A stretch of DNA of 64,000 nt from Novosphingobium sp. 28-62-57 (lineage in GTDB: Bacteria; Pseudomonadota; Alphaproteobacteria; Sphingomonadales; Sphingomonadaceae), in assembly GCF_002256985.1 (NCBI RefSeq), contig NZ_NCGO01000007.1:80475-144474 (forward strand). Direction: 5' to 3'. Under the pieces are notes generated by a model. The model saw nothing but the letters and a program-made list of their open reading frames with translations, searched no databases and was not told the DNA's origin. The position numbers and the translations under genes were made by a program. Positions 20,250 through 24,827 of this stretch are shown here, in pieces. Every line of letters begins with the position of its first letter. Position 1 is the stretch's first letter.

Positions 20250-21203
20250 TCAGACCTTTCTTTCGTCAGCTTTGGCGTCCTGGAGGGCCTCGGCAATGAT
20301 CGCCTCGACCAGATCGGGATAGTCCATACCCAAAGCCTTGGCCTGTTCGGGCACGAGGCTCAATGGAGTCATGCCGGGCTGGGTGTTCACTTCGAGCAGG
20401 AACAGCCCTTCGACACCTTGCGTATCATCCCAGCGGAAGTCCGACCGACTGGTGCCCTTGCACCCCAGCAACTGGTGCGCGCGCAAGGCAATCTGCTTGC
20501 AGGCCTGCGTGATTTCCTCAGGGATTTCAGCCGGGCAGATATGGTCGGTCATGCCTTCGGTGTACTTGGCATCGAAATCATAGAAACCAGACTTGGGCCG
20601 CAGTTCGGTGACCAGCAGCGCACGGTCTCCAATCACGGCGGTGGTCAATTCAAGCCCGCGAATGAAGGGTTCGGCCAGCAACTGGTCGAATTCTTGCCAC
20701 GGGCCTTTGCTATCCGCGCTGATCGGGTTGCCGTAATTGCCATCGGCGGTGACGATGGCGACGCCAACCGATGACCCCTCATTCACCGGCTTGAGCACAT
20801 AGGGGCGCGGCAGGGGATCCACTTTGAAGAGGTCCGCCACTTTGACCATGCGCCCGCCGGGCATGGGGATGCCATGTGGGACCAGCGCTTGCTTGGTCAG
20901 TTCCTTGTCAATCGCGACGACCGAGGTGGCAAGGCCCGAATGGGTATAAGTCAGGCCCATGATGTCCATCAGGCCCTGAATCGAGCCGTCTTCTCCGGGC
21001 GTGCCGTGCAGCGCATTGAACACCACATCGGGCTTGGCTTCGGACAGCCGCAGCGCCACATCGCGGTCCATGTCGATGCGGGTGACGGTGTGGCCCTTCG
21101 ATTCCAGCGCCTTGGCCACGCCCTCGCCCGACATGAGGCTGACCGGGCGCTCGCTCGACCAGCCGCCCATCAATACGGCTACGTGGAGTTTGGGGAGAGT
21201 CAC
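20250..21203 (-). CDS. ddl: D-alanine--D-alanine ligase
   Basis: VLMGG.SSER.VSL.SG, LHG..GEDG, KP..EGSSVG, LEVNTQPGMT..SLVP; GTG start overlaps the murB stop. Confidence 0.95.
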   Translation of the reverse strand: MTLPKLHVAVLMGGWSSERPVSLMSGEGVAKALESKGHTVTRIDMDRDVALRLSEAKPDVVFNALHGTPGEDGSIQGLMDIMGLTYTHSGLATSVVAIDKELTKQALVPHGIPMPGGRMVKVADLFKVDPLPRPYVLKPVNEGSSVGVAIVTADGNYGNPISADSKGPWQEFDQLLAEPFIRGLELTTAVIGDRALLVTELRPKSGFYDFDAKYTEGMTDHICPAEIPEEITQACKQIALRAHQLLGCKGTSRSDFRWDDTQGVEGLFLLEVNTQPGMTPLSLVPEQAKALGMDYPDLVEAIIAEALQDAKADERKV

Positions 21204-22192
21204 TTGCGACCAATCCTTTTGATTTCCCATTCGAGGTCCACGCCTGCGCTGTCTTTCACGCGGCGGCGCACTTCCTCGCCCAGCGCTTCGATCTCGGCGC
21301 TCGTCGCCTCACCGGTGTTGATCAGGAAGTTGGTGTGCTTTTCGCTCACTTGCGCACCCCCCATGGTGAGGCCCCGGCAACCGGCCTTGTCCACCAGTTC
21401 CCATGCCTTGTGGCCATCCGGGTTCTTGAACGTCGACCCGCCGGTCTTGGAGCGAAGCGGCTGCGAGGCTTCGCGTGCGGCGCTGATGCGGTCCATTTCG
21501 GCCTGAATGGCCGCCGGTTCGCCCGGTTCACCGCGAAAGCGTGCGGCGACCACGATGCAGCCGTCAGTCAGGTCAGAATGGCGGTAGGTGTAGCCCAGTT
21601 CCGACAGCGGCAGCGTGGCGATCTCGCCCGAGCGGATCACGACGTCGCAATCCACCAGCACATCCTTGACCTCGCGGCCATAGGCCCCGCCATTCATGCG
21701 CACGAAGCCGCCCACGGTGCCGGGGATGGAGCGCAGGAATTCAAGGCCAGCAATGCCATGGTCGCGCGCGGTGGAGGACACGAGAATGCCGCTGGCCCCG
21801 CCGCCGCAGTTGAGGGTGGTTTCATCTGTGCGTTTGACTTTAGCGAAAGCCTTGCCGAGGCGGATGACGACGCCCGGAACACCGCCATCGCGCACGATCA
21901 GGTTGGAGCCAAGGCCAAGCGCCATGACCGGCACGTCGGGCGCGAGATTGGCGAGGAAGTCCTGCAGGTCGGCCAAGTCTTTGGGTTCAAACAGCCAATC
22001 GGCCGTGCCGCCGGATTTGAACCAGACCAGCGGGGCGAGCGGGGCGTTGGGGGTGAGTTTGCCGCGAAAGGTTGGAGGCACCACCCCCCGACCCCCTCCT
22101 CTGAAGAGGAGGGGGAGATTGATAGCGCTTACTTGCCCCCCCTCCTCTTTAGAGGAGGGGGCTGGGGGGTGGTGGTGATCCAAAGCGCTCAC
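21200..22192 (-). CDS. murB: UDP-N-acetylmuramate dehydrogenase, with an in-frame palindromic insert near the N-terminus
   Basis: [44 protein letters not shown]; GTG start overlaps the murC stop. Confidence 0.95.
22079..22174. repeat. 96-bp inverted pair of CCCCCTCCTCT-NN-AGAGGAGGGGG hairpins inside the murB ORF
   Basis: Perfect hairpins at 22092-22115 and 22138-22161, flanked by CACCACCCCCC/GGGGGGTGGTG; length is exactly 32 codons. Confidence 0.9.
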
Positions 22193-23616
22193 GCCACAGC
22201 CCTCTCAGCCGCAATCGCATCGGCCAGACCCGCCGCCCACTTGGTGATGTCGCCCGCGCCAAGGCACACGACCATGTCGCCTGCCTGCACCGTAGCCGCC
22301 AGTTCGCGCGCCAGGGCATCCGGCCCGGCGATCAGGTGCGCACTGCGATGCCCGCGCGCCTTGATGCCTTCGACCATCGCTGCGCTGTCCACGCCCTCAA
22401 TCGGCGCTTCTCCCGCAGGATAGACCGGCGCAGCATAGACCACATCGGCATCATTGAACGCGCCCTGAAACTCTTCCATGTGATCGCGCAAGCGCGTGAA
22501 GCGGTGCGGCTGGACCACGGCGATTACGCGGCCCCCCTGACCTTCTCTGGGCACACCTTCGCGCGCGGCGGCGAGAACGGCGCGGATTTCGACCGGGTGG
22601 TGGCCGTAATCGTCGATTACGGTGACTCCGTCTACCTCGCCCACCTTGGTGAAGCGGCGCTTGACGCCGCCGAACTTGGCAAAGCCGGTGCAGATCAGAT
22701 CGTCCGACACGCCCATTTCCACTGCGACTGCCACAGCCGCAAGCGCGTTCTGCACATTGTGGCGGCCCGGCATCGGCAGTTCGAGCCCTTCGATGCGGCG
22801 GAACGAGCCATCGCGCTGGCGCAGCAGCACATCGAAACGGTTACCGCCCGGGATCGGCGTCACGGCTTCACCCCGAACGTCGGCCTGCGCGGAGAAGCCG
22901 TAGGTTATCACTCGGCGGTCGCGTACCTTGGGGATGATCGCTTGCACTTCAGGATGATCAATACATAGCATCGCCGCGCCATAGAACGGCACGTTTTCAA
23001 TGAATTCCACGAAAGCGGACTTCACCTTGTCAAAGCTGCCGTAGTGATCGAGGTGTTCGGGATCGATGTTGGTGACGACCGCCAGCGTGCCATCGAGACG
23101 CAGGAACGAACCGTCGCTCTCGTCAGCCTCGACCACCATCCACTCGCTGTCACCCAGCCGTGCGTTGGAGCCGTAGGAATTGATGATGCCGCCGTTGATC
23201 ACGGTCGGATCCACCCCGCCCGCATCGAGCAGGCACGCGATCATCGAGGTCGTGGTAGTCTTGCCGTGCGTTCCGGCCACAGCCACGGTGTTTTTCAGCC
23301 GCATCAGTTCGGCCAGCATTTCAGCCCGGCGGACAACGGGGATGCGGTTTTCGAGCGCGGCGACGACTTCGGGGTTATCGCGCTTGACGGCAGTGGAAGT
23401 GACGACCACGGCCACACCATCGACGTTTTCGGACTTCTGCCCGATCATCACCGTGATGCCACGCTTGCGCAGGCCGTCGACCACATAGCTCTCGGCCATG
23501 TCCGACCCCTGCACCGCATAGCCCATGTTGTGCATCACTTCGGCAATGCCCGACATGCCAATCCCGCCGATGCCGACAAAGTGGATCGTGCCGATTTCAG
23601 TGCCGACGCCCTTCAC
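22189..23616 (-). CDS. murC: UDP-N-acetylmuramate--L-alanine ligase
   Basis: [42 protein letters not shown]; GTG start overlaps the murG stop. Confidence 0.96.
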
Positions 23617-24827
23617 TTGGTCTCTCCGTTTGCGTGCGCGCGCTTTGCAAGCTGCTCCTGCCCCGATGGCACGGCGCTGCGCTTTTCGACGCGGATCACG
23701 TCCATGATCGGATCGCCGCCGAACCCTTCGACCAGATCGGCCAGATCGCTGACGGCATTGGGCAAGCCGCAGTTCCACGCCGCATGCGCCGCATTGGCGA
23801 GGGTTTGCGGGTGCTGGGCCATAACCTGAATCTGCTTGGCCAGCTCCTTTGGCGTAAAGCCGGTCTGGCGGATCGCGCGTGCGCCGCCTGCCGCCACCAT
23901 TTCGCGCGTGTTGGCGGCCTGATGATCGTCGGTGGCGATGGGCAGCGGGATCAGGATGGCGGGGCGGCCCACGGCGGTCAGTTCAGCAATGGTCGAAGCC
24001 CCAGCGCGGCCGATAAACAGATGCGCGCCGGCCAGGCGGGCCTGCATGTCTTCAAAATAGGTGCCAAGTTCAGCCGGAATCTCATGCGTGGCATAGCGCG
24101 CGCGCACGGCTTCAAGGTCCTCAGGGCGGCACTGCTGCGTCACCTGCAAGCGGTGGCGCAAGGCTGGTGGCAGCATCGCGAGGCCATCAGGCACCACCTC
24201 TGACAGGATCGAAGCGCCCTGACTTCCGCCCGTCACCAGCACGCGGAACAGACTGTCTTCGGTGAATTCGGGGAAAGCCTCACCGCGCAAGGCCAGCACT
24301 TCGGGCCGCACCGGATTGCCCACACGGTGGACCTTGCCCCACAGCTTGGGATCGAGCCGATCAACCTCACCATAAGCCGTGGCGATGGCATCGACCCGGC
24401 CCGAGAGGAAGCGGTTGACGCGGCCCAGCACGGCGTTCTGTTCGTGGATTACCGTCGGGATCTTGGCCGCACGTGCCGCCAACAAGGCAGGCAGTGCAGG
24501 ATACCCGCCAAAGCCGATGACGCACGAGGGCTGAAAGCTTTCAAACAGGCGCAGCGCCATAGCCCGGCCCTGCCAGATGGCGCGCAACCCCTTGGCCAGC
24601 GCAACCGGGTTCTTGGCCAGACGTCCGGCGGGAAGCACATGGGCTGGCATGAAATCGGGCTTGCCGGGGATCATCGCCCCGCGTTCATCGGTGACCAGTG
24701 CAACATGGTGGCCGCGCCGGTCCAGTTCGATCGCCAAGGCAAAAGCGGGGATCAGATGGCCGCCGGTGCCGCCCGCAGCCAGCACGAAATGCCGGGAAAC
24801 GCCGATGGCCGGATTGGGGGCGTTCAT
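23613..24827 (-). CDS. murG: Undecaprenyl-PP-MurNAc-pentapeptide GlcNAc transferase
   Basis: GGTGGH..P, GFGGY, HEQN..LG.VN, GGSQGA, RAGAST, DDHQ..N. Confidence 0.96.

Follow-up and report, generated by a model that had tools for sequence, protein, structure and literature searches.

A REP-like palindromic doublet at the coupled murC–murB junction of a Novosphingobium genome is probably read in frame as an N-terminal tail of MurB

We analysed a 64,000-nucleotide stretch of the genome of Novosphingobium sp. 28-62-57 (contig NZ_NCGO01000007.1, forward-strand positions 80,475 to 144,474; hereafter the window), in which a palindromic repeat lies within the first codons of murB, an essential cell-wall gene. 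The repeat, 96 nt at window positions 22079–22174 on the minus strand, is a young, non-autonomous copy of a palindromic family of Novosphingobium that resembles repetitive extragenic palindromic (REP) sequences. Sequence comparison makes it likely that this element is translated from the ancestral murB start, which is coupled to murC, and that it gives MurB a mostly disordered N-terminal tail of 32 residues ahead of the conserved fold. We compared the murC–murB junctions of about 100 sphingomonad relatives, and used 41 genomes for genome-wide repeat counts and for orthologues of a nuclease gene of the DUF559 family. The genome under study, a draft of 39 contigs and 4.1 Mb, is called G000 where a label is needed, and C-numbers denote its contigs.

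The long murB open reading frame (ORF; 21200–22192, minus strand) encodes 330 residues, matches Pfam FAD_binding_4 and MurB_C, and has its conserved fold from about residue 42 (FRGKL). Its ancestral start, the GTG at 22190–22192 (minus strand), overlaps the TGA of murC (22191–22189) as GTGA, which makes this a −4 coupled junction, and a Shine–Dalgarno (SD)-like GAGAGGG at 22200–22206 (minus strand) lies 7 nt 5′ of this coupled start. Read on the minus strand, murC (22189–23778, a listed ORF of 529 residues) ends GCG TGA and codons 1–6 of murB are GTG AGC GCT TTG GAT CAC. The element then supplies codons 7–38, after which murB continues CCT CCA ACC TTT CGC GGC AAA (PPTFRGK). The element begins 14 nt after the murC stop and at +19 from the murB GTG, near the edge of the assumed footprint of an initiating ribosome, and in G000 it is free of stops in the coupled murB frame only. 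Its boundary is ambiguous, in that a start one codon earlier, giving 99 nt, is equally possible. There is no clear target-site duplication at murB or at ligA, which holds a further copy; the left junction may hold an additional CAC, but the reading is ambiguous.

The element is an inverted doublet with its tails pointing outwards, and is laid out on the minus strand as CACCACCCCCC-AG-(CCCCCTCCTCT AA AGAGGAGGGGG)-22 nt-(CCCCCTCCTCT TC AGAGGAGGGGG)-TC-GGGGGGTGGTG. Both hairpins have a perfect 11-bp stem. Hairpin 1, which is 5′ on the mRNA (22138–22161), is read as PSSKEEG and has a predicted energy of −23.4 kcal/mol, and hairpin 2 (22092–22115) is read as PLLFRGG at −28.9 kcal/mol including flanks. 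The 22 nt between them (22116–22137) are a spacer that varies among copies of the family. The 5′ tail (22164–22174) pairs with the 3′ tail (22079–22089), which holds two GTG codons in the murB frame (22084–22082 and 22081–22079), and the 3′ arm of hairpin 2 contains an SD-like AGGAGG (22100–22095) upstream of them. The 96 nt are predicted to fold as RNA into a single 37-bp hairpin of −81.5 kcal/mol (z = −10.2 relative to shuffled sequences), the inner hairpins folded singly giving −23 to −29 kcal/mol each. The window contains two occurrences of the 24-nt hairpin motif, where zero are expected. A search of the element against Rfam gave nothing above threshold and only sub-threshold matches to eukaryotic microRNA precursors, as expected of a generic long hairpin, and a scan of the element found no U-tract and no terminator-like or promoter-like site.

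Close relatives carry the corresponding empty site. Most genomes of the genus have a compact junction, with the murB start and murC stop overlapping as NTGA and about ten codons before GKL, and the NTGA overlap is present in nearly all relatives. The closest relative, whose MurB is 95% identical, has the empty junction GTGACAACCATCGCGCTGCCGCAGGTTCGCGGC (VTTIALPQVRGKL), and another has VTTLTLPSVRGKL; both match the sequence left when the element is removed. The coupled start and its SD-like sequence, GAGAGGG, are the same in that closest relative, and the 24 nt 5′ of the start are nearly identical. Two further assemblies of the same species (GCA_002279815.1 and GCA_002281675.1) are identical to ours over 190 nt across the junction, which shows that the insert is not an artefact. 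Because the conspecific copies are identical and the closest relative is empty, the insertion is real and young at the species level. Faulty assembly or binning of the segment, for instance through collapse of a repeat into the contig of the dcw cluster, would draw on the facts that repeats are a common source of misassembly and that the genome is a 39-contig draft. However, it is rendered extremely improbable by the identical junction in the two further assemblies, by members of the same repeat family at this site in a further seven species, among them the isolates N. hassiacum DSM 14552 and N. capsulatum NBRC 12533, and by flanks that are collinear with those of relatives. The initial annotation of this DNA, made from the letters alone, had described a 96-bp inverted doublet from murB codon 7, the overlap of the murB GTG with the murC stop, the two in-frame tail GTGs and a normal MurB N-terminus upon excision. 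All four are borne out, the last by the relatives' empty sites, and neither of the two outcomes that it named as refuting holds: relatives show the predicted empty site, and the insertion is real.

The comparison of junctions argues for translation of the element. About 40% of the sphingomonad loci examined hold an insert at this 25-nt murC–murB site, and sister species differ in the repeat family they carry. Counting loci with at least 60 extra nucleotides, there are 42 distinct insert-bearing loci, which hold repeat families A to F (A being that of the G000 element), in a few cases non-palindromic sequence, or, in Sphingobium, a conserved ORF of 65 codons. An ORF that starts on the murC stop spans the whole insert in 41 of the 42; it fuses to murB in 20 of these, and in 21 it ends on a stop that overlaps a start in the murB frame (NTGA). 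The sole exception is a metagenome-assembled genome (MAG) in which murB is likewise frameshifted. The coupled frame is open across the insert at 38 of 41 loci, as against 37 of 82 for the two remaining frames. Such unbroken coupled ORFs would have no reason to exist if an independent downstream start sufficed.

Family A occupies the same spot in eight species, namely G000, N. hassiacum, N. capsulatum, the genome G013 and four MAGs. Every one of the eight inserts is open from the coupled start. The distance from the murC stop to GKL in seven of them is 104, 107, 119, 119, 125, 128 or 131 nt, in each case 2 modulo 3, as fusion requires. Hairpin 2 is read in three different frames among these carriers, and yet the overall frame is always restored. 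G013 has its tail GTGs out of frame and lacks any start downstream, so at least half of its element must be translated. On a tree of murC and murB the family-A carriers are scattered, each beside a sister with an empty site or with family B. A single ancestral insertion was therefore rejected as the sole explanation, although one ancient insertion followed by many precise losses is conceivable.

The murB–ddl junction also accumulates sequence: over loci L016–L125, 26 of 103 have gained more than 50 nt there, and several have gained 500–1,000 nt. This weakens the idea of the murC–murB junction as a unique hot spot. Our reading is that repeats may have a general affinity for operon junctions, on which a strict filter for translational continuity would be superimposed where murC and murB are coupled.

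Genome-wide, the 22-nt hairpin core of family A is present in 55 copies with at most one mismatch and 66 with at most two, a reversed control pattern giving none. These form some 39–52 loci, mostly doublets of a unit CACCACCCCC-NNN-CCCCCTCCTCT-NN-AGAGGAGGGGG, that is, an 11-bp-stem hairpin plus a CACCACCCCC tail. The start-to-start spacing within doublets is 77–79 nt with the tails inwards, the commonest form, or 37–46 nt with the tails outwards. The murB copy is of the latter form with 46-nt spacing, as are those in ligA and rnr and those at C27:51586 and C35:493694. The genome also abounds in a sister subfamily, D (CCCCTCCCCT..AGGGGAGGGG with GGGGGTGGGGG tails), and in the unrelated palindromic families B (TTCGACAGGCTCAG...) and C (TCGTGTCGAGCG...). 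Most family loci appear intergenic by eye, and at least eight family A or D loci lie within genes verified by Pfam.

These in-gene calls were made by taking ORFs that span a repeat and accepting those in which Pfam showed a real gene (LigA, GlyS, RNase R, ValS, an FtsX-like permease and MurB); several further candidate ORFs of 260–483 residues looked spurious by eye and were dropped. Sorting repeat loci into intragenic and intergenic by codon-usage log-odds was tried and rejected, since in a genome this rich in GC antisense frames also receive coding scores, and glyS was assigned to the wrong strand. In ligA, a tails-out family-A doublet (C1:323064–323157) is in frame and splits the adenylation domain with 34 residues that are missing from 25 of 25 relatives. 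The 863-residue glyS ORF contains three separate in-frame family A or D doublets (C1:443075–444543). In-frame family A or D units also occur in rnr (RNase R; C1:653319–653418, within the stretch matched by the RNB domain, residues 269–632), in valS (C27:89837–89938, splitting the catalytic domain) and in the gene of an FtsX/MacB-like permease (C1:547992–548013). Pfam domains are found on both sides of the insert in rnr, glyS, valS and the permease gene. No alternative start could rescue the protein when a copy lies inside any of these five genes, which supports translation of the element.

The additional residues of MurB are expected to lie in front of its fold, since the closest solved MurB structure (PDB 9dtk) aligns only from residue 42 and an AlphaFold model built on 53 relatives has a confidence (pLDDT) below 50 for residues 1–22, about 70 for residues 21–40 and above 90 for most of the core. 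A search of 5.8 billion proteins with residues 1–45 gave no match at E ≤ 1e-3, this query being too short and of too low complexity.

We propose that the repeat landed in the first codons of murB because murB in this clade has no intergenic space, its start overlapping the murC stop. Ribosomes would finish murC, restart at the overlapping GTG at 22192 with the SD-like sequence unchanged, melt the hairpins, cross the 96 nt and make a MurB of 330 residues. The 32 extra residues would be a low-complexity, largely disordered tail before the FAD-binding fold, tolerated and not useful. Inserts at the junction would survive only if translation from murC stays continuous, which leaves two forms, the in-frame fusion seen in G000 and a short relay ORF that terminates on a renewed overlap with the murB start. 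A minor second isoform could arise from the internal GTGs, and long and short forms of MurB may coexist. This scheme accords with a review of translational coupling, according to which terminating ribosomes prefer the start codon nearest the upstream stop, and coupling declines with distance (PMC12548453).

Several observations weigh against translation from the coupled start. NCBI annotation begins murB at the tail GTGs, giving 294 residues on this contig and 293 in two other assemblies. The 330-residue form is absent from the protein collection. The 37-bp hairpin 15 nt past the start could depress initiation or elongation, and coupling tends to be weaker where structure lies just past an upstream stop (PMC12548453). 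Di Nocera et al. point out that a large number of N-terminal REPs are in fact extragenic (PMC3733652). Our tree rests on two genes, and the insertion events compared are partly non-independent. Finally, a mere need for ribosomes from the coupled start to be productive, with most MurB made from the internal start, would produce the same in-frame rule.

Alternatively, the element could be effectively intergenic. MurB would then begin at the GTG at 22084 or 22081, with AGGAGG serving as its ribosome-binding site, so that the murB start has been rewired and 22192 to 22085 is a leader that is untranslated or only incidentally translated. The choice of these GTGs by public annotation, the normal length of the resulting N-terminus and the position of AGGAGG 10 nt before the first GTG all speak for such a start. 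So does the finding that the tail GTG-GTG is in frame in seven of the eight family-A inserts even though the frames of hairpin 2 differ, with AGGAGG 10–13 nt upstream, which makes a start borne by the element plausible. A gene for a periplasmic binding protein (Peripla_BP_2; C29:51213) likewise has a signal peptide immediately after the same tail GTGs, and Di Nocera et al. regard N-terminal REPs as largely extragenic (PMC3733652). However, AGGAGG is locked in a perfect 11-bp GC stem inside the 37-bp hairpin, and the GTGs lie 105–108 nt beyond the end of murC, a distance at which coupling would be inefficient (PMC12548453). The sequence upstream of such a start would be free to drift out of frame or gain stops, and never does so (eight of eight family-A inserts; 41 of 42 loci), and G013 has no in-frame tail GTG. 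Moreover, the coupled start and its SD-like sequence are intact, so ribosomes that start there make the long form anyway. We consider the internal start doubtful on balance. The initial annotation had left open whether the element adds a peptide or supplies a new ribosome-binding site and GTG; the comparative data favour the peptide, while the tail GTGs are the start in public use.

Retention for a function of the RNA, with the peptide as a by-product, appears to us unlikelier still. The insert could in that case tune the MurC:MurB ratio in one of several ways: it might shield the mRNA on its 5′ side against 3′ exonucleases, weaken translational coupling, or hold up ribosomes terminating on murC 14 nt upstream. 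Such a role would agree with the very stable structure and with the occupancy of the junction, where about 40% of the loci examined hold one of no fewer than four unrelated palindromic families, often in sister species; this is far above the genome-wide density of such repeats. It would also fit the preference of REPs for gaps between co-directional genes close to the upstream stop (PMC3733652) and the lowering of coupling by structure just after that stop (PMC12548453). However, the murB–ddl junction is expanded about as often, which indicates that junctions in general collect repeats, and most close relatives do well with an empty site. Older copies (L056, L018 and L057) have decayed stems, which argues against selection on structure, and the element has no U-tract or terminator and no Rfam family above threshold. 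A selected role at the RNA level is not needed to explain the junction pattern.

Translation of the murB element from the coupled start would place it alongside the Rickettsia palindromic elements (RPEs), in-frame palindromic repeats in Rickettsia genes (Ogata et al. 2000, 2002, as summarised in PMC10969869), of which some N-terminal RPE-1 decorations are expressed in vivo, according to work cited in PMC3733652. RPEs share with family A that they are small dispersed palindromes of an alphaproteobacterial genome, many of them in frame in unrelated housekeeping genes, and that they yield additional peptides, at the surface or the termini, which the fold can accommodate. In G000, too, in-frame and stop-free copies occur in several unrelated conserved genes and are missing from orthologues (ligA in 25 of 25 relatives; the empty sites of murB). 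The comparison with RPEs and the assignment to a REP-type element, both made in the initial annotation, are thus upheld by the in-frame copies in other essential genes and by a dispersed family of 55–66 hairpins. The differences are that the host of family A is free-living, with a 4.1-Mb genome of 62% GC, and that family A has a unit of about 37 nt, or 96 nt for a doublet. RPE-1 is about 150 nt and unrelated in sequence, and the murB copy sits where two translationally coupled genes meet instead of in an internal loop.

Family A also resembles the GTAG and CGTC REPs, which have a short GC-rich stem-loop with a tail, are mostly inverted dimers and favour co-directional gaps near the upstream stop (PMC3733652). 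In several phyla, a minority of those REPs lie inside ORFs, where they add 20–30 residues, including in tRNA synthetase genes of sphingomonads (S. alaskensis and E. litoralis) and in a DNA ligase gene (PMC3733652). However, family A has neither a GTAG nor a CGTC tag, and its 11-bp stem and 2-nt loop contrast with the 8–9 bp and 4–5 nt of CGTC REPs (PMC3733652). A further difference concerns interpretation: whereas that study doubts that N-terminal copies code (PMC3733652), the comparative data here argue that the murB copy does. Families B and C at the junctions of relatives bear a superficial resemblance to the alphaproteobacterial REPs of Di Nocera et al.

The relay ORFs of 21 relatives look to be arranged like mycobacterial interspersed repetitive units (MIRUs). 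As reportedly described by Supply et al. in 1997, MIRUs are repeats of intergenic operon regions, with short ORFs that overlap the start and stop of the flanking genes so that coupling is kept. They differ in being direct-repeat minisatellite units, not palindromes, and the G000 insert is fused to murB with no separate relay ORF. MIRUs are mentioned in the coupling review (PMC12548453).

We also looked for the enzyme that might move family A. G000 has six DUF559 genes, four of which are bracketed by inverted hairpin-plus-tail modules, each of a different dispersed family. The gene bracketed by family A (C1:322114–322473, module 322062–322497) takes the spacer position of a tails-in doublet and lies immediately upstream of ligA. 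The others are bracketed by family D (C35:293625–293957, module 293595–294025), by a third type of module between trpB and trpA (C3:63852–64145, module 63820–64210) and by a family-F-like module (C1:362726–363040, module 362640–363130). Of the 41 genomes, G019, G001 and G021 alone have an orthologue of the A-type gene (63–73% identity), in every case with A hairpins on both sides. The numbers of A hairpins are 55 in G000, 46 in G001, 28 in G019 and 2 in G021, with none in 28 genomes, so that all three genomes with at least 28 carry the A-type gene. Three fragmented assemblies (G011, G020 and G008) have 6–12 A hairpins without a close DUF559 orthologue. The third-type module between trpB and trpA is apparently also present in G011, of which the upstream flank was inspected.

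This arrangement is like that of REPINs and their RAYT transposases, in which two inverted REPs form the mobile doublet and a single-copy gene is bracketed by its cognate repeats (PMC3116915; Nunvar 2010). As in a REPtron, the gene-bearing copy of family A occupies the same chromosomal place, upstream of ligA, in G000, G001 and G021. Unlike in those systems, the bracketed gene encodes a DUF559 (Vsr-like PD-(D/E)XK) nuclease, not a Y1 HUH transposase. Family A probably spreads through a DUF559 nuclease gene held between two of its units, a link that is one of association; our literature search found no paper connecting DUF559 with repeats. A RAYT was considered as the mobilising enzyme and rejected, the sole Y1_Tnp (PF01797) gene of the genome (C38:28953–29276) being flanked by a different repeat of about six copies. 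Nor was a parent insertion sequence with the same ends found, as a miniature inverted-repeat transposable element would have: no pair of tails 400–3,000 nt apart encloses a transposase, and such pairs occur only in the DUF559/ligA repeat cluster. How REPs move without a dedicated transposase is a question left open by Di Nocera et al. (PMC3733652); if the DUF559 link is real, it would point to an enzyme of a new kind acting on REP-like repeats without a RAYT.

Because RPEs (PMC10969869) and intragenic REPs (PMC3733652) are both established, the insertion in murB is not a new phenomenon. What may be new is the rule that coupling is preserved, the repeated hits at the murC–murB junction and the DUF559 gene bracketed by hairpins of the family, and the interest of the locus rests on that rule and that association more than on a single insertion. 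The two could be joined in a tentative reading, to which we give somewhat less than even chances, that sphingomonad murB is expressed essentially only by ribosomes handed on from murC and so sieves mobile palindromes, and that these include a hitherto undescribed, DUF559-driven class of REPtron. Under this combined proposal there may have been about 25–30 independent insertions from at least five repeat families, kept only as a fusion or an NTGA relay. A free-living bacterium may then carry REP peptides as expressed portions of its essential proteins, and each DUF559 paralogue may be paired with its own hairpin family, the RAYT having been replaced.

Pipelines call murB short and treat the repeat as intergenic, whereas the comparative evidence suggests that the long form is probably made, and the same coding question applies to the many N-terminal REPs now treated in the literature as likely misannotation. 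With dozens of insertions that keep the chain of translation, the murC–murB junction is a natural experiment in coupling and a sign that murB depends on murC ribosomes. With in-frame repeats in ligA, glyS, valS and rnr, a genus that is free-living and culturable would offer a tractable model for the selfish DNA found within Rickettsia proteins.

Further observations concern the repeats in other genes and at other junctions. Further along ligA, a palindrome of family C (SVSTSLDTNG) is likewise read in frame. The glyS ORF has additional repeat-like stretches (SPAQAGASG... and PAFAGTQ) and is presumably, by our estimate, some 130–160 residues longer than expected for GlyS. Families B and C lie inside about 20 more candidate ORFs of at least 450 residues (for example, 926, 923, 841 and 641 residues). 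The Peripla_BP_2 gene, with its family-A tail at C29:51213–51234, about 29 kb upstream of the window start, encodes a lipoprotein-type signal peptide (LFAFAALAASLTSGC) directly after the tail GTG-GTG, and the element may supply its start codon or n-region. The locus of the IS200/RAYT-like Y1_Tnp gene (C38:28400–29330) contains about five copies of an AT-rich 30-nt repeat (GAATTACGGTGACACTTTACTAAATCCCC), with a truncated duplicate of the 5′ end of the gene upstream. In Sphingobium (L099, L101, L103, L108, L123, L118 and L114), the conserved ORF between murC and murB (MFELFAVGLEMQKRMIDAQMQG...) has 65–72 codons, and its start and stop overlap the murC stop and the murB start; it may be a real small gene of the dcw cluster. 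Finally, the 529-residue murC ORF of the window has an Arg-rich N-terminal extension of 50 residues, and since a conspecific assembly calls murC at 475 residues, the true murC start is probably internal.

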